A stretch of DNA of 22,433 nt from a virus. Its lineage: Duplodnaviria > Heunggongvirae > Uroviricota > Caudoviricetes. The stretch lies in the IMG/VR virus record IMGVR_UViG_2627853732_000005, one strand, 5' to 3'. Numbering within the stretch: the first letter of the stretch is position 1; every line of letters begins with the position of its first letter. The position numbers and the translations under genes were made by a program. This document shows positions 2,623 to 17,645 of this stretch, piece after piece. The notes beneath the pieces were generated by a model. The model was not told the origin of the DNA and did not search any database. It worked only from the letters and a program-made list of their open reading frames with translations.

Positions 2623-3295
2623 GTATCGATACCGGCTGACCACACAGCGCTTCGGGAACGCTGTAACGATTACCACCAACCTCGATATAGCTGTCCCAGG
2701 ACACATGGCGGATATCGAAGTAACTGGTATCGAAGTCTGTATCCGGTAACGGCTGCAGATGTTCCTGCTCCAGCGCGAAGCGCTGTTCCGGCGTTTCTTT
2801 GAACTGGCGAAGCTCCCGTTTGTCAGCCACATCGGCTATCCATTGCTCCAGTTGTTGATTGACATGAGTGAAGCTGTCGAACCTGCGGTACCGGACGAAG
2901 AAGTTCTCCTTGAGGTATTTCACCATCCGCTCAACCTTACCTTTTGTTCTGGCCCTGCGTGGACGGCATGCCCGTGGCAGGAAGTTATAGTGGTCAGCCA
3001 GCAACAGGAATCCGGAGTTGAACACGACTTTCCCGTTGTTATTCTTCAGCACCGCAGCCTTCTGGTTATCAACCAGCACCGTTTTCACACAATCACCGAA
3101 GTAGCGGAAGGCGCGAACCAGTGATTCGTAGGTATGCTCAGCATCCTGTTTTGGTGCGGCGAAGACATGGAAGCTGCGGGAGAACCCCAGCGTATTAACC
3201 GCAAAGTTAACTTTGCACCGTTGCCCGGCAACCTCCACCTCAACTTCGCCCCAGTCATGCTGGAGCTGGTATCCAGGCTGAGTTTCGAAGCGAAC
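2623..3295 (-). pseudogene. istA: IS21-family transposase IstA, central/catalytic fragment
   Basis: Translation from 3295 downward reads VRFETQPGYQLQHDWGEVEVEVAGQRCKVNFAV...LPRACRPRRARTKGKVERMVKYLKENFF, the IstA DDE-region pattern as I recall it. It is cut at 2622/2623 by truncated IS600 copy A. The track ORF 2522..3238 is this frame running on into IS600. Confidence 0.65.
3293..3295. repeat. 3-bp target-site duplication (AAC), left copy, of IS600 copy B
   Basis: AAC directly abuts both ends of the element (3293-3295 and 4560-4562). Confidence 0.8.
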
Positions 3296-3359
3296 TGAGG
3301 TAGCCTGAGTTTAACGGACACTCCTTCCTGAAATAGAATGGCATCAGAAGGAGCTAATA

Positions 3360-3662
3360 ATGAGCAGAAAAACCCAACGTTACTCTAAAGAGTTCAAAGC
3401 CGAAGCTGTCAGAACGGTTCTTGAAAATCAACTTTCGATCAGTGAAGGCGCTTCCCGATTATCTCTTCCTGAAGGCACTTTAGGACAATGGGTTACCGCC
3501 GCCAGAAAAGGGCTCGGTACTCCTGGTTCCCGCACGGTGGCTGAACTGGAATCTGAAATTCTGCAACTACGTAAGGCGTTAAATGAAGCTCGCCTTGAGC
3601 GAGATATATTAAAAAAAGCAACAGCGTATTTTGCACAGGAGTCGCTGAAAAATACGCGTTAA
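3360..3662 (+). CDS. IS3-family transposase OrfA (HTH DNA-binding)
   Basis: 100-aa ORF MSRKTQRYSKEFKAEAVRTV...; the identical protein recurs at 12777 and, with one substitution, at 12298 and 20743. Confidence 0.9.
   Translation: MSRKTQRYSKEFKAEAVRTVLENQLSISEGASRLSLPEGTLGQWVTAARKGLGTPGSRTVAELESEILQLRKALNEARLERDILKKATAYFAQESLKNTR
3611..3617 (+). other. candidate programmed -1 ribosomal frameshift site (A7 run followed by G) joining OrfA to OrfB
   Basis: TTAAAAAAAGC near the orfA 3' end. The -1 frame from this point reads KKSNSVFCTGVAEKYALIEQWRQQFPIEAMCQVFGV..., which runs into OrfB. IS3-family elements are known to make OrfAB this way. Confidence 0.6.
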
Positions 3663-3697
3663 TCGAACAATGGCGACAACAATTTCCCATTGAAGCG

Positions 3698-4516
3698 ATG
3701 TGTCAGGTATTTGGTGTATCCAGGAGCGGTTATTACAACTGGGTACAGCATGAACCCTCAGACAGAAAACAAAGTGATGAGCGGCTAAAACTGGAGATTA
3801 AGGTGGCACATATCCGCACTCGCGAAACATATGGAACCCGGCGGCTCCAGACGGAGCTGGCAGAGAATGGCATCATCGTTGGTCGTGACCGACTGGCACG
3901 TCTTCGTAAGGAGCTAAGGCTACGCTGTAAGCAGAAACGCAAGTTCAGAGCGACTACGAACTCGAACCACAATCTGCCAGTTGCGCCAAATCTGCTGAAC
4001 CAGACGTTCACTCCTACAGCACCAAATCAGGTCTGGGTGGCGGACCTGACGTATGTTGCCACACAGGAGGGATGGTTGTACCTCGCTGGCATCAAAGATG
4101 TTTATACGTGCGAAATTGTCGGCTACGCCATGGGAGAGCGCATGACAAAAGAGCTGACAGGTAAAGCCCTGTTTATGGCGCTCAGGAGCCAGCGCCCACC
4201 TGCCGGGCTAATCCACCACTCTGATCGAGGTTCACAGTACTGCGCATACGATTACCGGGTCATACAGGAGCAGTCTGGTCTGAAAACATCAATGTCGCGT
4301 AAAGGTAACTGTTACGACAACGCTCCGATGGAAAGCTTCTGGGGAACGCTGAAAAATGAGAGCCTGAGCCACTATCGTTTTAATAACCGGGATGAAGCCA
4401 TCTCAGTAATACGGGAATACATTGAGATTTTCTACAATCGTCAGCGTCGTCACTCTCGTCTGGGGAATATCTCCCCGGCAGCCTTCAGGGAAAAATATCA
4501 TCAGATGGCTGCTTAA
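3698..4516 (+). CDS. IS3-family transposase OrfB (DDE), copy B
   Basis: 272-aa ORF from the first ATG. Differs from other copies at one visible residue (NQTFTPTAPN versus NQTFAPTAPN). Confidence 0.9.
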   Translation: MCQVFGVSRSGYYNWVQHEPSDRKQSDERLKLEIKVAHIRTRETYGTRRLQTELAENGIIVGRDRLARLRKELRLRCKQKRKFRATTNSNHNLPVAPNLLNQTFTPTAPNQVWVADLTYVATQEGWLYLAGIKDVYTCEIVGYAMGERMTKELTGKALFMALRSQRPPAGLIHHSDRGSQYCAYDYRVIQEQSGLKTSMSRKGNCYDNAPMESFWGTLKNESLSHYRFNNRDEAISVIREYIEIFYNRQRRHSRLGNISPAAFREKYHQMAA

Positions 4517-4559
4517 AAAAAGAACAAATGGTAGTGTCCGCTATTGCCAGTACACCTCA

Positions 4560-11894: not shown

Positions 11895-12233
11895 TACCGG
11901 TATGCTCCACTTAACCGGCCACCATCACGGGCCTGCTGTTGCATAAAGTCCGCGGCCGCTTTTTTCCCGAGGTCATAAACCACCTTCAGGGCAGCCGGAC
12001 CTATCTGCCCGTTCGTGCCATCGTTATTGATCTCAATGTTGTACTGCGGGGCAAACATCACCATGCCTGAACCACCAGTATCCGCCACACCCCCCAGCTT
12101 ACCATCAGCACCGCGACGCAGTGGCAGAATGGCTTCAGGTCCCGCTTCCCCCATCACACCCGCGCCTTTTGCAAAAGCAAAAAACGTCGGACGGTTAACC
12201 ACCGTGCCACTGTAGCGACTCAAATCAGCAGAC
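11894..12233 (-). pseudogene. H: tail tape-measure gene H, C-terminal ~110 codons only; 5' part replaced by IS600
   Basis: Track ORF 11894..12259 begins with codons read out of the IS600 left end (SVKLRLPQ), then continues as an open frame that ends at the stop overlapping the M start. Identity inferred from position and frame. Confidence 0.7.
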
Positions 12234-12715
12234 TGAGGTAGCCTGAGTTTAACGGACACTCCTTCCTGAAATAGAATGGCATCAGAAGGAGCTAATAATG
12301 AGCAGAAAAACCCAACGTTACTCTAAAGAGTTCAAAGCCGAAGCTGTCAGAACGGTTCCTGAAAATCAACTTTCGATCAGTGAAGGCGCTTCCCGATTAT
12401 CTCTTCCTGAAGGCACTTTAGGACAATGGGTTACCGCCGCCAGAAAAGGGCTCGGTACTCCTGGTTCCCGCACGGTGGCTGAACTGGAATCTGAAATTCT
12501 GCAACTGCGTAAGGCGTTAAATGAAGCTCGCCTTGAGCGAGATATATTAAAAAAAGCAACAGCGTATTTTGCACAGGAGTCGCTGAAAAATACGCGTTAA
12601 TCGAACAATGGCGACAACAATTTCCCATTGAAGCGATGTGTCAGGTATTTGGTGTATCCAGGAGCGGTTATTACAACTGGGTACAGCATGAACCCTCAGA
12701 CAGAAAACAAAGTGA
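12234..12715 (+). mobile_element. IS600-like element, copy C, left 482 bp only
   Basis: Left terminal repeat at 12234, orfA, and the first ~20 codons of orfB. The sequence then jumps at 12713-12715 (shared TGA) into the left end of copy D. Confidence 0.85.
12298..12600 (+). CDS. IS3-family transposase OrfA, copy C
   Basis: 100 aa; carries the VPENQ variant (VLENQ in copies B and D). Confidence 0.8.
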   Translation: MSRKTQRYSKEFKAEAVRTVPENQLSISEGASRLSLPEGTLGQWVTAARKGLGTPGSRTVAELESEILQLRKALNEARLERDILKKATAYFAQESLKNTR

Positions 12716-12776
12716 GGTAGCCTGAGTTTAACGGACACTCCTTCCTGAAATAGAATGGCATCAGAAGGAGCTAATA

Positions 12777-13079
12777 ATGAGCAGAAAAACCCAACGTTAC
12801 TCTAAAGAGTTCAAAGCCGAAGCTGTCAGAACGGTTCTTGAAAATCAACTTTCGATCAGTGAAGGCGCTTCCCGATTATCTCTTCCTGAAGGCACTTTAG
12901 GACAATGGGTTACCGCCGCCAGAAAAGGGCTCGGTACTCCTGGTTCCCGCACGGTGGCTGAACTGGAATCTGAAATTCTGCAACTGCGTAAGGCGTTAAA
13001 TGAAGCTCGCCTTGAGCGAGATATATTAAAAAAAGCAACAGCGTATTTTGCACAGGAGTCGCTGAAAAATACGCGTTAA
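12777..13079 (+). CDS. IS3-family transposase OrfA, copy D
   Basis: 100 aa, identical in translation to copy B OrfA. Confidence 0.85.
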   Translation: MSRKTQRYSKEFKAEAVRTVLENQLSISEGASRLSLPEGTLGQWVTAARKGLGTPGSRTVAELESEILQLRKALNEARLERDILKKATAYFAQESLKNTR

Positions 13080-13114
13080 TCGAACAATGGCGACAACAAT
13101 TTCCCATTGAAGCG

Positions 13115-13754
13115 ATGTGTCAGGTATTTGGTGTATCCAGGAGCGGTTATTACAACTGGGTACAGCATGAACCCTCAGACAGAAAACAAAGTGATGAGCG
13201 GCTAAAACTGGAGATTAAGGTGGCACATATCCGCACTCGCGAAACATATGGAACCCGGCGGCTCCAGACGGAGCTGGCAGAGAATGGCATCATCGTTGGT
13301 CGTGACCGACTGGCACGTCTTCGTAAGGAGCTAAGGCTACGCTGTAAGCAGAAACGCAAGTTCAGAGCGACTACGAACTCGAACCACAATCTGCCAGTTG
13401 CGCCAAATCTGCTGAACCAGACGTTCGCTCCTACAGCACCAAATCAGGTCTGGGTGGCGGACCTGACGTATGTTGCCACACAGGAGGGATGGTTGTACCT
13501 CGCAGGAGCAGTCTGGTCTGAAAACATCAATGTCGCGTAAAGGTAACTGTTACGACAACGCTCCGATGGAAAGCTTCTGGGGAACGCTGAAAAATGAGAG
13601 CCTGAGCCACTATCGTTTTAATAACCGGGATGAAGCCATCTCAGTAATACGGGAATACATTGAGATTTTCTACAATCGTCAGCGTCGTCACTCTCGTCTG
13701 GGGAATATCTCCCCGGCAGCCTTCAGGGAAAAATATCATCAGATGGCTGCTTAA
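13115..13754 (+). pseudogene. IS3-family transposase OrfB disrupted by internal deletion, copy D
   Basis: Track shows two fragments (13115..13540 and 13470..13754) in different frames; the first diverges after EGWLYLAG. Confidence 0.8.
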
Positions 13755-13979
13755 AAAAAGAACAAATGGTAGTGTCCGCTATTGCCAGTACACCTCACAC
13801 TCTATCCAACAAACCACCCACAGTTAATCGGAATAAAAGCAGAGTGCTTATGAATGATCGCACGCCCGAAGGTTAGTATTTCTGCACAGCAATTTTGCAA
13901 AAAAAGGCGATCATTCATAACTTAAACGTCTTTCAGTCACTCCGGGATTTCCCATCATCGCAGACTGAAAGACTCTGAC

Positions 13980-14054
<75 letters not shown>

Positions 14055-14057
14055 ATA

Positions 14058-14133
<76 letters not shown>

Positions 14134-14135
14134 GC

Positions 14136-14212
14136 TGGCCCACCACCGAGGACTCGAACCTCGCACCGTCAACTTAGAAGGTTGATGCTCTATCCGGATG
14201 AGCTAGTGGTGG
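14136..14212 (-). tRNA. tRNA-Arg (anticodon UCU)
   Basis: Reverse complement CCACCACTAGCTCATCCGGATAGAGCATCAACCTTCTAAGTTGACGGTGCGAGGTTCGAGTCCTCGGTGGTGGGCCA. Acceptor CCACCAC/GTGGTGG, anticodon stem TCAAC/GTTGA, loop CTTCTAA; encoded CCA. Confidence 0.8.
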
Positions 14213-14213
14213 T

Positions 14214-14290
14214 TGGTGGCCCTTGCTGGACTTGAACCAGCGACCTGGCGATTATGAGTCGCTCGCTCTGACCAACTGAGCTAAAGGGCC
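14214..14290 (-). tRNA. tRNA with CAU anticodon, most likely Ile2 (lysidine type) rather than elongator Met
   Basis: Reverse complement GGCCCTTTAGCTCAGTTGGTCAGAGCGAGCGACTCATAATCGCCAGGTCGCTGGTTCAAGTCCAGCAAGGGCCACCA. Anticodon loop CTCATAA. Overall close to E. coli ileX as I remember it; Ile versus Met cannot be settled by eye. Confidence 0.75.
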
Positions 14291-14377
14291 GGAGGCAGAA
14301 TAATAACCATATGTCATCACATCTGCAAACTCATCTGACCACCAGCACGTTTAACGTCCTGTGCCGTTTTTCAGGTA

Positions 14378-14405
14378 TAAAAAAACCCGCATAAAGCGGG
14401 CTCTT
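14378..14405 (-). terminator. rho-independent terminator between Q and the tRNA array (possible tR' analogue)
   Basis: Minus-strand RNA CCCGC-UUUAU-GCGGG followed by UUUUUUUA (plus-strand stems 14386-14390 and 14396-14400, A-run 14378-14385). Confidence 0.6.
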
Positions 14406-14479
14406 TCAAATGTCCATGTCTGCTATTCGCCTCGCGGTACAGCTTTGCGAAGCGTACAAGAATTGAAGCAGTTTTTACG

Positions 14480-15034
14480 TCAAAAAGCAATAACTTTTTT
14501 CTCTATACCAAAAGCCATAACCATTGGTTTGTACAAAATAAATTCTGCCACCTTTAGCCAATGCTCAATGCGTCTTTCACAGGTTCTTAAACTCCATTTC
14601 GGGTGTGCATCATTCAGCAGTTCAGCCATTTTGCGTTTGGTCATCCCCCGCCCCTCATACCGTTGCCGAAGGACGCTAATCAATCCTGGATGCTCTGCCA
14701 GCACCTCACTTATGACCCGATCAATACATAACGCCTCTGCATCAGTACAATGCGCCAGCCAGCTCTTTTGCTTACCGTTAATCATATCCCGCAAAAAAGC
14801 CTCAAGTTCAGACTTGTTCAGACCTGCTTTTTTCATCCTCCGGAGCGCCTCGTTAATTGCCGTTTTTGTCAGCTTTTTAGAGGTCAACATCAGGTTAAAC
14901 ATATTCCCCGTCTTACCGCCACCAATATACGACCAGCGCCCCCACATACGTAGTTTTCCCTGAATCCAGACACTTTCCAGCGTGGTGAGACGAAGGTGTT
15001 CTCCGCTTTTTCCTGTATTCGTTGGGTAAATCAT
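14480..15034 (-). CDS. late-gene antiterminator Q-like protein (QuuD/Q82-type)
   Basis: Start reassigned to ATG at 15034 (MIYPTNTGKSGEHLRL...), which overlaps the upstream stop as ATGA and is preceded by GGAGG. Contains LRMWGRW and CTDAEALCIDRV, resembling the ERWGAW / C.DD...I motifs of QuuD as recalled. Sits between nin genes and the terminator/tRNAs. Confidence 0.65.
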   Translation of the reverse strand: MIYPTNTGKSGEHLRLTTLESVWIQGKLRMWGRWSYIGGGKTGNMFNLMLTSKKLTKTAINEALRRMKKAGLNKSELEAFLRDMINGKQKSWLAHCTDAEALCIDRVISEVLAEHPGLISVLRQRYEGRGMTKRKMAELLNDAHPKWSLRTCERRIEHWLKVAEFILYKPMVMAFGIEKKVIAF

Positions 15035-15321
15035 AAATATCCCTCCTTTCTCCAGATTTCTTGTGTGCGAAAAACACCTTCTGCATGCATCAGGCGTAAT
15101 TCTTCTTTGGTGTAATCGCTGGTTTTTACCCGCCCGTCGATTAAATCGTGGCACGAGCTACAGGCAATCGCTGCCTGCATATCGTGTGGCTTTATCGCTG
15201 TTCCGCACGTTCCCGCCAGTCGGTAATGCGCCAGCACAGACGTTTCCGGATCGTGATTGCAGTAGCCAGGAATTCTGACGGTGCACATCTGCCCCCGCGC
15301 CGCTTTACGTAAATCCACCAT
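15031..15321 (-). CDS. YbcO-like nin-region protein (DUF1364-type, Cys-rich)
   Basis: 96 aa, MVDLRKAARGQMCTVRIPGYCNHDPETSVLAHYRLAG...AIACSSCHD, resembling DLP12 YbcO as recalled; start overlaps the upstream stop (TAATG). Confidence 0.65.
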   Translation of the reverse strand: MVDLRKAARGQMCTVRIPGYCNHDPETSVLAHYRLAGTCGTAIKPHDMQAAIACSSCHDLIDGRVKTSDYTKEELRLMHAEGVFRTQEIWRKEGYL

Positions 15322-15920
15322 TACGCAAACTCCAGCAGCTGCGCGGCCACATTTTCGACTTGTTCCGGAGAGGAAAATTTACGGAACAGAATCCAGTTCC
15401 ACAGCACATTCAGAACAGATTTATAAACCTGCTGAAACTCGGTTTCGTCCATATTCGCAAAAGCGATGGATTTTGCCCGACGCCCGCGGCTACCGTCCGG
15501 ATAAAAATGTTCGGTGTAAAATCCAGCCTGAATGGTTACCCACTCGCGAAAAGCCTCAAACGACTTTAGCAATGCCGTATCCCGGGTTCTGCGTGTCGCA
15601 ACTGTATTCAGATATTGCTCTGCGGCTTCGCTCAGAGCTGGCGTATGTTCCCGACCTACTGATTCGCACAGGTAATCAACGAAACCAGACAGCAGTTCTC
15701 GTTCGCGAGGCGTGATCGCCCCACCGACCGGAGTCCAGTAATCGAATCCCAGTTGCAGGAGTTTGAAAAAACGCTTGTGGAATGCGTAGTTACGCACACG
15801 CTTAAAGTCTGCGTGTATCCACTCACCTGTTTTGATTTGATGCAGAAAATCGCAACTCTCCGGCGTCGCCGGGAGAAGTAATCCGGAAGAGGTTTGTTTG
15901 ATCAGTTGTATATGCGCCAT
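15321..15920 (-). CDS. nin-region phage protein of unknown function
   Basis: 199-aa ORF in the same operon orientation, tightly coupled to the following gene. I suspect a DUF family but cannot recall it reliably. Confidence 0.55.
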   Translation of the reverse strand: MAHIQLIKQTSSGLLLPATPESCDFLHQIKTGEWIHADFKRVRNYAFHKRFFKLLQLGFDYWTPVGGAITPRERELLSGFVDYLCESVGREHTPALSEAAEQYLNTVATRRTRDTALLKSFEAFREWVTIQAGFYTEHFYPDGSRGRRAKSIAFANMDETEFQQVYKSVLNVLWNWILFRKFSSPEQVENVAAQLLEFA

Positions 15921-15991
15921 CGTAGTTCTCCGCTGGCGCAGTAGAATGGGTGTTCAGCCCGTTATGTAGTATACCAGAATTAATGCCAATA

Positions 15992-16204
15992 CTAACAGGA
16001 TGCTCTGACTCGCAATTCATCCAGCAGTTTATCATTTCCCATAATGTCACTTACCCTCATCGGTAAAAAAATTGCCTTTCGACCATTACGATACATCATT
16101 GATTTTTTGGTTTCAGGGAAGTAATCCATTTCGACTATAACTGACAGGTCATCACGACGTATGACTGCGTATTTACTACTAAATAGTTTCTTTATTTTTT
16201 CCAC
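15992..16204 (-). CDS. hypothetical small protein (70 aa)
   Basis: GTG start at 16204 preceded by GGAGG at the right spacing; IS1 copy 1 lies 52 bp upstream of the start. Confidence 0.35.
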   Translation of the reverse strand: MEKIKKLFSSKYAVIRRDDLSVIVEMDYFPETKKSMMYRNGRKAIFLPMRVSDIMGNDKLLDELRVRASC

Positions 16205-16310
16205 GATGCCTCCAGGTTTATAAGTACAAACGGTTATATCAACATAGAGACAAAAGGTGATGCTGCCAACTTACTGATTTAGTGTATGATCGTGTTTTTG
16301 AGGTGCTCCA

Positions 16311-16586
16311 GTGGCTTCTGTTTCTATCAGCTGTCCCTCCTGTTCAGCTACTGACGGGGTGGTGCGTAACGGCAAAAGCACTGCCGGACATCAGCGCTAT
16401 CTCTGCTCTCACTGCCGTAAAACATGGCAACTGCAGTTCACTTACACCGCTTCCCAACCCGGTACGCACCAGAAAATCATTGATATGGCCATGAATGGCG
16501 TTGGATGCCGGGCAACTGCACGCATTATGGGCGTTGGCCTCAACACGATTTTACGTCACTTAAAAAACTCAGGCCGCAGTCGGTAA
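16311..16586 (+). CDS. insA: IS1 InsA
   Basis: [43 protein letters not shown]..., 91 aa. Confidence 0.95.
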
Positions 16587-17008
16587 CCTCGCGCATACAG
16601 CCGGGCAGTGACGTCATCGTCTGCGCGGAAATGGACGAACAGTGGGGCTATGTCGGGGCTAAATCGCGCCAGCGCTGGCTGTTTTACGCGTATGACAGTC
16701 TCCGGAAGACGGTTGTTGCGCACGTATTCGGTGAACGCACTATGGCGACGCTGGGGCGTCTTATGAGCCTGCTGTCACCCTTTGACGTGGTGATATGGAT
16801 GACGGATGGCTGGCCGCTGTATGAATCCCGCCTGAAGGGAAAGCTGCACGTAATCAGCAAGCGATATACGCAGCGAATTGAGCGGCATAACCTGAATCTG
16901 AGGCAGCACCTGGCACGGCTGGGACGGAAGTCGCTGTCGTTCTCAAAATCGGTGGAGCTGCATGACAAAGTCATCGGGCATTATCTGAACATAAAACACT
17001 ATCAATAA
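16505..17008 (+). CDS. insB: IS1 InsB reading frame (expressed as an InsAB' fusion after a -1 frameshift)
   Basis: 167-aa ORF as given by the track; the functional transposase is known to be the frameshift fusion. Confidence 0.9.
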
Positions 17009-17084
17009 GTTGGAGTCATTACCAAAAAAACCGCCGAAACGGGTTAAGTGCGGGTGCGTTGAGGATGCCTGACACATCAAAGGT

Positions 17085-17106
17085 GGCGGGAGATTACTCT
17101 CCCGCC
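17085..17106 (-). other. perfect hairpin 10 nt 3' of the hok stop (candidate hok mRNA 3' structural element)
   Basis: GGCGGGAGA-TTAC-TCTCCCGCC, 9-bp stem and 4-nt loop; no U-tract. Confidence 0.4.
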
Positions 17107-17115
17107 TGGTCACTC

Positions 17116-17271
17116 TTACTCTCTAGATTCGTAGTCTACGAAAACAGCGACCTCCGTCTGGCCGATTCGGATTCGTACCTCGCAGAGGTCTTTCCTCGTT
17201 ACCAGTGCCGTCACAATGACGGTTAAACAGATGACGATCAGGGCGATTAACATCGCCTTTTGCTGCTTCAT
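17116..17271 (-). CDS. hok: Hok/Gef-family type I toxin (51 aa); the in-frame upstream extension to 17328 is Mok-like
   Basis: MKQQKAMLIALIVICLTVIVTALVTRKDLCEVRIRIGQTEVAVFVDYESRE closely follows HokD/HokC as recalled. AAGGAG lies 9 nt upstream of the ATG at 17271. Confidence 0.85.
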   Translation of the reverse strand: MKQQKAMLIALIVICLTVIVTALVTRKDLCEVRIRIGQTEVAVFVDYESRE

Positions 17272-17610
17272 AGCCTGCTTCTCCTTGCCTTTCGGCACGT
17301 AAGAGGCTAACCTACATTTGTGAGACATAGATTGGGCCTCAGATTAATGTTAAGCGTCTTGCAGGACGCGTAATGTTAACTGGGGCTTTTCTCTGTCTGC
17401 CTTACAGTGACATACCCGAGGCAGACAGCCTCAAGCACCCGCAGCAATCTTACCGACACCGATAAGAAAACGCTATTTTTTATTGCCAGCACCATCTATC
17501 CAGGCTAGTTTATCTGCGTCAGAACGGCGCAATGCGCTCGCCTGAGATACGTTTACTTGCCATGGTAACAACAGGTAACGGCAATTGCTGTTTCTGTTTT
17601 GTTTCCTTCA

Positions 17611-17645
17611 AAAACCCCGGACCATCAATCCGGGGTTTTTGTTTG
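17611..17645. terminator. bidirectional rho-independent terminator
   Basis: AAAA-CCCCGGA-CCATCAA-TCCGGGG-TTTTTGTTTG; U-tracts on both strands, stronger on the plus strand. Confidence 0.65.

Follow-up and report, generated by a model that had tools for sequence, protein, structure and literature searches.

A small insert between hok and DUF551 in a lambdoid prophage as a candidate source of a non-coding RNA

Several small RNAs (sRNAs) have been described from lambdoid prophages, among them DicF, the Pas RNAs, AgvB/AsxR, Esr41, STnc100, and svsR/co293. They are short non-coding units, end in U-tailed intrinsic terminators, and occur in some strains but not in others; several of them affect how the host takes up or metabolizes sugars (PMC5069750, PMC12803456, PMC4104026, bioRxiv 10.64898/2026.05.13.724894). 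The stretch of DNA considered here, 22,433 nucleotides (nt) long, is IMG/VR virus record IMGVR_UViG_2627853732_000005 (“the window” below), a lambdoid prophage read on the minus strand, with many insertion sequences. In the gap between its hokW-type Hok/Gef cassette, on the left, and its DUF551 gene, on the right, lies a module of about 195 bases (17449–17645) that is present in some prophages and absent from others otherwise collinear with them. Judging from sequence comparisons, this is probably, although with considerable reserve, a small mobile insert, a “moron” without an open reading frame (ORF), making up a single plus-strand unit for a non-coding RNA of about 125 nt. Such an RNA would plausibly be new among prophage-encoded sRNAs; the module shares the general features just listed but matches none of the described examples in sequence or structure. 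A preliminary description, made from the window’s sequence, had proposed termination signals for rightward transcription here, and with them an antisense or regulatory RNA.

Four other kinds of described system bear comparison. OOP of phage lambda is a short RNA that has a promoter and a terminator to itself, runs counter to the early-right operon, and is cis-antisense over the 3′ end of cII. The candidate unit is likewise short and opposed to the early-right operon, with a terminator and a predicted promoter of its own, but it is located in the nin region, reaches no more than 2 bases into the converging ORF, and has no sequence similarity to OOP. Sok, of the hokW/sokW type, is also a plus-strand small RNA from the same intergenic neighborhood, and the module is linked to hok in most copies; however, Sok is antisense to the mok leader, while the candidate RNA is 130 nt farther right, past the hok promoter, and not complementary to hok beyond chance. 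Phage morons are similar in being discrete inserts, present or absent between two operon genes, with a promoter-like element at the border, a terminator, and a GC content below that of the flanks, but classical morons carry a protein-coding gene, whereas the module has no conserved ORF. Finally, bidirectional terminators, including that of RNA I/RNA II in pAD1 par, resemble the hairpin at the right end of the module in having a perfect GC-rich stem with an A-tract and a T-tract between converging units, and as in par one of these units encodes a small hydrophobic peptide (here a 27-amino-acid ORF). The difference is that this ORF is found in 1,487 genomes, nearly all of them without hairpin or module, so that ORF and module do not form an obligate toxin-antitoxin couple; the U-tract on the minus strand is also short.

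The module was recognized as an insert by comparison with 5,426 complete E. coli genomes. The segment 17445–17650 is found in 40 of them, 30 with at least 80% of it and 10 matching the hairpin and right flank only, and the module is unannotated in all 40 RefSeq records. In the common arrangement (SE11, O157:H7 F8492, cq9, phage pPE4), about 45 nt separate the hok 5′ end from the stop codon of the 27-amino-acid ORF, and there is no hairpin; 17449–17645, hairpin included, is missing from most prophages that share this minus-strand operon and its hok cassette. The module’s left neighbor is the hok cassette in most copies, but in C5, 04-00955, and two viral contigs that place is occupied by a plus-strand gene of 93–110 amino acids with its own terminator. 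Homology common to the two types of left neighbor begins at TTTTTATTGCCAGC, that is, at the −35 element of the predicted promoter considered below. The GC content of the module is 0.457, versus 0.519 in the hok cassette and 0.56 in the 27-amino-acid ORF. The features expected of a moron are thus found here, as an insert present or absent between relatives, with defined borders, a terminator, and a promoter that is so far a predicted one. Viral contigs were first scanned with a 20-mer inside the conserved block described below; the same set of copies was recovered by an independent terminator pattern, by a different metagenome pattern, and by BLAST. Blastn searches of phage records (50,697) and plasmids (72,556) gave nothing related to the module.

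At the right end of the module is a hairpin (17609–17641) with the form of an intrinsic terminator, bidirectional in shape. Its stem of 13 bp, with 7 G-C pairs, is formed by CAAAAACCCCGGA (17609–17621) and TCCGGGGTTTTTG (17629–17641), an inverted repeat with 100% complementarity, around a 7-nt loop. The hairpin proposed in the preliminary description, at 17615–17635 with a T-rich tail on the plus strand, is indeed present, as the core of this longer stem (CCCCGGA, 17615–17621, with TCCGGGG, 17629–17635) followed on the plus strand by TTTTTGTTTG (17636–17645). On that strand it folds at −20.7 kcal/mol (z-score −4.3, with none of 200 shuffled sequences as good) and on the minus strand at −24.0 kcal/mol (z-score −4.5). 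The tails differ: UUUUUGUUUG on the plus strand (8 of 10 U, as U5GU3) versus UUUUUGAAGG on the minus strand (TTTTT, then GAAGG), so the plus strand is the richer in U after the hairpin. A terminator scan passes the hairpin on the plus strand and does not report it on the minus strand. On the plus strand the pattern is thus that of an intrinsic terminator, a GC-rich stem-loop followed by a U-rich tract. The same scan, with three sites in all against 1.0 ± 1.0 expected in shuffled sequences, also gives a weaker site, AACGGCAATTGCTGTT with TCTGTTTTGT (17577–17592), containing the palindrome GCAATTGC at 17581–17588. The palindrome and its T-run had been noted as a further termination signal; both are there, but a reading in which the palindrome forms the apex of a longer, internal stem-loop fits better than one with a second terminator.

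Two changes in the hairpin among the copies can be added. In the most divergent haplotypes (L006, L008, and L094) the loop, 17622–17628, is flipped while the stem is unchanged: it reads TTGATAG in place of CCATCAA, each the reverse complement of the other except for one base, the signature of a palindrome-centre flip. In L035 and L095, a 40-nt deletion between direct repeats TTTTGTTT has removed the whole hairpin (equivalent to about 17600–17641).

The hairpin could serve the plus or the minus strand. Lambdoid nin regions contain terminators that are read through by antitermination, and the hairpin could be one of these, a tR-like terminator of the early-right (nin) operon after the 27-amino-acid ORF, with the 170 nt to its left acting as spacer or as upstream regulatory DNA of the hok promoter, and the plus-strand T-run incidental. 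It is 4 nt past the stop codon of the last minus-strand ORF, and its fold is slightly better on the minus strand, at the −24.0 kcal/mol given above; the A/T tract could serve hok as an UP element. This is nevertheless improbable. In most prophages that share the ORF, operon, and hok cassette, hairpin and 170 nt are both absent, so the minus-strand operon does not normally own a terminator here, and the module is also found without hok. The minus-strand tail and the terminator scan both point the other way, and G-U pairs in the stem-loop preceding the hairpin become C-A on the minus strand. The possibility raised in the preliminary description of a minus-strand operon terminator with incidental symmetry is disfavored on these grounds, and the region is not conserved merely as the 3′ untranslated region of that operon, relative to which it is an insertion.

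What the hairpin does accompany is plus-strand transcription units. In SLK172 and six IMG/VR contigs, where the rest of the module is absent, it immediately follows the stop codon that ends a plus-strand toxin-antitoxin operon (relE with a helix-turn-helix, or HTH, gene), with a stem and loop identical to those in the window. In the loci examined it is found only where a plus-strand unit, either the module or the relE/HTH pair, adjoins it on the left. By these comparisons, the hairpin comes along with plus-strand transcription units, which argues further against its being a minus-strand terminator.

The same observation opens a second possibility, that the module is a relic: the hairpin would have been the terminator of a former plus-strand moron, for example a toxin-antitoxin pair, that lost its coding part by deletion or replacement as hok came in, and the preceding 130 nt would be non-functional. 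In other prophages this site does have a plus-strand relE/HTH operon ending in the identical hairpin, the element is rare, and some copies have lost the hairpin or the −35. There is also a plus-strand frame, RSPEIRLLAMV, that by eye resembles PALRLLSVV at the C-terminus of the antitoxin in the equivalent position in SLK172. A HigA-like antitoxin remnant was considered on this basis and rejected: BLASTP gave no alignment, Pfam no match, and a search of 5.8 billion proteins returned only the same ORF. A parent gene was not found by blastn in the 5,426 E. coli genomes, in phages, or in plasmids. In addition, part of the module is less variable than the adjacent coding gene, and one of its hairpins has been kept through 13 substitutions (both described below); neither would be expected of a relic, which on balance seems rather unlikely.

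Further observations on this site concern what else may stand left of the hairpin. The three kinds of occupant seen are a coiled-coil-like protein of 93–110 amino acids with its own terminator, a relE/parE-HTH pair, and the non-coding module; examples of plus-strand cargo are L006 1609–1941, L007 1663–1944, and L009 1298–1979. In L042 the hok cassette, module, and 27-amino-acid ORF are duplicated within the same nin region (146–770 and 2628–3250), 2.5 kb apart, with at least 300 nt at 100% identity and different upstream genes.

If the module is a transcription unit, it should have a start as well as an end. At its left border is a predicted −35 element, TTGCCA (17483–17488, plus strand; five of six matches to TTGACA), unchanged in 16 of 17 haplotypes (L054 has TTTCCA), preceded by an A/T tract, TATTTTTTA (17474–17482), read from the sequence as a possible UP element that would be shared with the divergent hok promoter. 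The predicted −10 element, TAGTTT (17506–17511), has just three matches of six, but these (T1, A2, and T6) are the ones kept in its variants TAATTT, TAATGT, and TACCTT. Variability along the module follows the same outline. In the A/T tract and TTGCCA (17477–17488), one of 12 columns varies; in the spacer (17489–17505) 13 of 17 do, yet its length is always 17 nt; in the −10 hexamer it is three of six, with TAnnnT kept throughout. There follows a near-invariant block of 46 nt (17516–17561), with three variable columns, and then a more variable stretch, the region of the second stem-loop described below (17562–17608; 19 of 47). The converging 27-amino-acid ORF (17646–17729) has 35 variable columns of 84, and the block is significantly less variable than this coding sequence (Fisher P = 1.4e-5). 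Such a pattern would be expected where a promoter precedes a transcript under constraint that starts near 17518, a start proposed from where the −10 lies and where invariance sets in (17516). The case for the promoter depends on position and conservation rather than on strength of match.

A weak promoter leaves room for the possibility that plus-strand RNA comes only by read-through, from the Sok promoter, an IS1 element, or an upstream plus-strand gene, with the hairpin as a backstop for the converging operon and no RNA gene in its own right. At its end, 17390, Sok has only a U4 tract, C5 and 04-00955 have a plus-strand gene (with its own terminator) directly upstream, and in the window insA/insB of IS1 read in the same direction. 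The upstream units vary between loci, however, while the module is constant, and read-through would leave unexplained the TTGCCA/17-nt/TAnnnT border, the invariance from 17516 on, and the conservation of the second stem-loop. It is considered unlikely as the whole account.

The transcript predicted from these borders (about 125 nt, 17518–17645, plus strand) consists of a first stem-loop (SL1), an 18-nt linker, a second stem-loop (SL2), and the terminator, and has a minimum free energy of −47.0 kcal/mol (z-score −5.1), mostly from the terminator. RNAalifold gives the same arrangement for the plus strand, with the linker single-stranded and 17 bp in SL2, and loses SL2 on the minus strand. SL2 (17564–17606), with GCAATTGC at its apex, has a U-rich 3′ arm, UGUUUCUGUUUUGUUUCC, which is followed by UUC, the terminator hairpin, and the tail UUUUUGUUUG; the arm is a possible Hfq site. 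In having both a U-tailed terminator and a U-rich stretch beside a stem-loop, the 3′ portion has the composition expected of an Hfq-type sRNA, as far as sequence allows this to be judged.

SL2 also carries a strand preference. It folds at −16.0 kcal/mol on the plus strand (z-score −3.6) versus −10.3 kcal/mol on the minus strand (z-score −2.3). Ten of its 17 pairs vary among copies, eight with G-U, which pairs only on the plus strand, and one with C-A, which pairs only on the minus strand. All nine SL2 haplotypes fold on the plus strand, at −11.6 to −16.0 kcal/mol, and each is 3.7 to 8.3 kcal/mol weaker on the minus strand. When the same number and kind of mutations were placed at random positions, the chance of keeping the SL2 energy as well as the most divergent haplotypes do was P = 0.036, 0.064, and 0.10 on the plus strand and 0.40 on the minus strand. 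The bias toward a plus-strand RNA is suggestive, not conclusive.

In the near-invariant block, which makes up the 5′ portion of the predicted RNA, it appears to be the sequence that is constrained, since SL1, lying within it, is thermodynamically ordinary. A degenerate-stem scan for SL1 variants returned the same 38 loci, and so added no sequences from which covariation in this stem could be judged. A block conserved in sequence without a significant fold could also be thought of as a DNA-level element, for example a site bound by protein or a linker for recombination where mosaic segments join; it does sit at a junction of module exchange, and contains a near-palindrome, GCGCAATGCGC. This is very improbable: there is no repeat or partner site nearby beyond chance and no related sequence at other junctions in the 5,426 genomes, and the strand-specific hairpin, the terminator, and the promoter-like border would all be left unexplained.

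There is no conserved ORF in the module, every frame being interrupted in the window or in relatives. The only long plus-strand ORF (17532–17732, 66 amino acids), already thought spurious in the preliminary description, is indeed so: it crosses the terminator, is antisense to a real gene, and is broken in relatives, by a stop codon in C5 and by frameshifts or indels in other haplotypes. Among 5.8 billion proteins its only relative is the same spurious ORF (98% identical) in a Shigella flexneri assembly. Coding readings were rejected for this ORF and for minus-strand ORFs of 32 and 14 amino acids, all without Pfam or PHROG matches and broken in relatives.

Known RNAs were sought with all of Rfam 15. 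At gathering thresholds only RF01794 (the hok leader) and the tRNAs pass, and no family covers the module; at E ≤ 10 over 17441–17650, the best match is STnc30, with 27.6 bits against a gathering threshold of 120, and the weak matches are all driven by the terminator. The models for DicF, AgvB, AsxR, Esr41, and STnc100 do not match the module even at E ≤ 10, and a literal sequence search of a library of papers did not find it. Other identities were rejected on position or distribution. svsR is located at the 3′ end of cI (PMC12803456), and the Pas RNAs, defined in E2348/69, are near holin, RusA, and TerB genes (bioRxiv 10.64898/2026.05.13.724894). The module is thus unlike svsR or PasA/C in being beside hok, and E2348/69 is, like K-12 and O157 strains, outside the 40 genomes with the element. 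Shigella CssrB and CssrC do not fit either, CssrC being taken as a hok transcript (see below). Sok itself is at 17320–17390, and the hairpin and block are outside the hok transcript, the 5′ end of which is at 17440. A type I toxin-antitoxin pair with the 27-amino-acid ORF was rejected as well; that ORF is in 1,487 genomes and the module in 30 to 40, and the overlap consists of the terminator only.

The predicted RNA is not cis-antisense to any gene in the window; its overlap with the converging ORF is at most 2 bases. A duplex scan of the block against the whole window and the hok mRNA gave nothing better than shuffled seeds. An inverted repeat (17530–17546 with 17715–17731) was rejected as a pairing site: at 82% complementarity it is about at chance level, and the two RNAs would be alike there, not complementary. 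The suggestion of an antisense or regulatory RNA on the plus strand therefore holds in part. A regulatory RNA is favored by the insert status, the partners of the hairpin, the U-tract, the strand bias of SL2, and the border, and among the readings of the region is the best supported, while cis-antisense action on a window gene is not.

A possible target in trans was found in the host. A 20-nt stretch within the block, TCAGAACGGCGCAATGCGCT (17519–17538, plus strand), is perfectly antisense to the coding region of sgrR. In a permissive BLAST search with 17512–17570 this 20-mer was the only match outside the module, in 1,035 E. coli genomes including EcN; sgrR is on the opposite strand when the locus is oriented to the query, so that a plus-strand RNA would be antisense to its mRNA. 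The predicted pairing site is in codons SALRRSE, about 410 nt into sgrR. In K-12 and the module-bearing C3 there is one A-C mismatch, which leaves 17 contiguous pairs, and in two more sgrR alleles one pair is turned to G-U. The flanks of the match are unrelated. At the same threshold none of three control queries (the reversed query and two dinucleotide shuffles) gave a match. The stretch begins 1 base after the predicted start, inside the invariant block, and many enterobacterial sRNAs bear their seed in a similar 5′ position. A literature search for sRNAs acting on sgrR gave nothing relevant. On this evidence sgrR may be regarded as a tentative lead to a target. The fuller proposal, that the module encodes an undescribed prophage sRNA silencing SgrR in trans through a perfect 20-nt duplex in the coding region, must be considered doubtful.

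A number of points weigh against a functional RNA of this kind and against sgrR as its target. Only 30 to 40 of 5,426 genomes have the element, and its copies, from E. coli or Shigella prophages, are all closely related, so that few independent events are represented. The predicted −10 has only three of six matches, and the consensus promoter scan of 16900–18200 gave no site, the candidate falling below threshold; TTGCCA-N16-18-TANNNT has a single match in the window, but at least one in 43 of 100 shuffled sequences. Apart from the terminator the fold is unremarkable (z-score −1.8 on the plus strand and −1.3 on the minus strand), and SL1 (17519–17545), with a z-score of −0.1, has no thermodynamic signal. 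A formal covariation test of SL2 was not significant, with 103 of 500 shuffles reaching the observed score, and a single SL2 pair has changed on both sides in compensation. L054, with its −35 mutation, and L035 and L095, with their hairpin deletions, may be decaying copies. The sgrR match has a BLAST E-value of 5 (in a highly redundant genome database of 28 Gb), and the chance of any such 20-mer match in a non-redundant pangenome of 20–200 Mb is estimated at about 0.001 to 0.015, a calculated figure, not a measured one. The predicted pairing lies far into the coding region and overlaps the predicted SL1 stem, which is atypical for targets of Hfq sRNAs; the invariant block extends 23 nt past the match; and most module-bearing genomes have the sgrR allele with one mismatch.

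With these reservations, the favored non-coding unit would work as follows. A weak to moderate sigma-70-type promoter (TTGCCA, 17 nt, TAGTTT), perhaps aided by the A/T tract, would fire divergently from the hok promoter, and transcription would start near 17518 and end at the hairpin (17609–17641) and its U5GU3, giving an RNA of about 125 nt. Its layout would be that of an enterobacterial base-pairing sRNA of the Hfq type, with a near-invariant 5′ part, a stem-loop with a U-rich arm, and a U-tailed terminator. Binding of Hfq would be to SL2, on its U-rich 3′ arm, and to the U tail, and the conserved 5′ part would pair with targets in trans, the explicit candidate being the host sgrR mRNA. Pairing within the sgrR coding region should lead to cleavage, less SgrR, and a damped induction of SgrS/SgrT under sugar-phosphate stress. 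As a by-product, the hairpin would stop or insulate converging transcription of the prophage early-right operon, and on prophage induction, the RNA would be complementary over its full length to antiterminated minus-strand read-through transcripts.

The immediate surroundings of the module agree with the earlier placement of the region between the mok start (17328) and the end of the DUF551 gene (17726). On the left, the hok/mok mRNA (17030–17440, minus strand, 5′ end at 17440) is recognized by Rfam RF01794 (118 bits over 17266–17440) and Hok/Gef by Pfam (E = 1.7e-21). A Sok-type antisense RNA of a hokW-like cassette (17320–17390, plus strand) was located by alignment to the sokW feature of phage 933W, and has a hairpin and GGGGCUUUUCU. 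The left edge of the region as first delimited thus belongs to known elements: 17380–17392 is the Sok 3′ end, and 17380–17440 the 5′ end of the hok mRNA on the minus strand. RF01794, named “sok antitoxin (CssrC)”, matches the strand of the hok mRNA leader, ending in the AUG region, and not the Sok strand. CssrC of Shigella flexneri 301, the origin of the model, was reported as a transcript of some 340 nt that shares the strand of the genes on either side (PMC3071730); given this length and strand, it is probably the hok mRNA, and annotation with RF01794 would place “sok” on the wrong strand. The insert has also replaced the DNA upstream of the hok −10 (17441–17480, minus strand). The common form of this promoter is TTGCGG-16-TAGAAT, and in the window it is TAAGAT with no recognizable −35 (TAGCGT) and an A-tract farther upstream, so hok transcription may differ in module-bearing prophages.

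On the right, the hydrophobic 27-amino-acid ORF (MTWPEAFTTVGIAMAVALVVYSICRWG; 17646–17729, minus strand) is the last minus-strand gene before the module, part of its context and not of the RNA. Its ATG overlaps the DUF551 stop codon (ATGA), and its DNA, with flank, is found in the 1,487 of 5,426 complete E. coli genomes mentioned above behind differing upstream genes. Variable sites at codon positions 3, 1, and 2 number 15, 8, and 4, the pattern expected of a real gene. It has no Pfam family, and its best PHROG match is at just E = 0.019; it is unannotated in the nearest RefSeq genome and a “hypothetical protein” in others.

The wider window is closely matched by a prophage of E. coli FDAARGOS_944, with 99.7% identity but no IS1, and an IMG/VR contig is identical to bases 13506–22433. 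In FDAARGOS_944 the gene order, all on the minus strand, is lysis genes, four tRNAs, ORF6N, DUF1133, DUF1364, DUF1367, a hypothetical gene, Hok/Gef, DUF551, another hypothetical gene, an HNH endonuclease, and onward. The four tandem tRNA genes are at 13983–14290 in the window (minus strand), between the antiterminator region and the lysis genes, and are annotated as Ile, Arg, Thr, and Gly in that near-identical prophage. The two IS1 copies are at 16256–17025 and 19772–20541, one of them directly after the hok mRNA terminator; their insA/insB are on the plus strand, in the same orientation as the candidate RNA. A repeat of about 1.26 kb is present in four full or partial copies (1446–2622, 3296–4559, 12228–13503, and 20679–21943). 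Taken with the 98% identical ORF of Shigella flexneri, the IS1 copies and these repeats suggest that the window derives from a genome of Shigella type whose prophage is decaying.

If the RNA is real, it would join the growing set of prophage sRNAs that rewire host physiology, with an explicit, testable target in sgrR, the activator of the SgrS/SgrT glucose-phosphate stress response. Were the silencing of SgrR to hold, the prophage would be turning down the SgrS/SgrT sugar-phosphate stress circuit and resetting PtsG and ManXYZ, sugar transporters that are also entry routes for phage DNA. The 20-nt seed would then have been captured from a host gene, or have converged on it, in an ORF-less moron coupled to a hok/sok addiction cassette. 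More generally, the module would be a moron with RNA rather than protein as its cargo, and the gap between the small ORF of the nin region and hok would be an exchange point for plus-strand cargo, whether a toxin-antitoxin pair, a coiled-coil gene, or an RNA.

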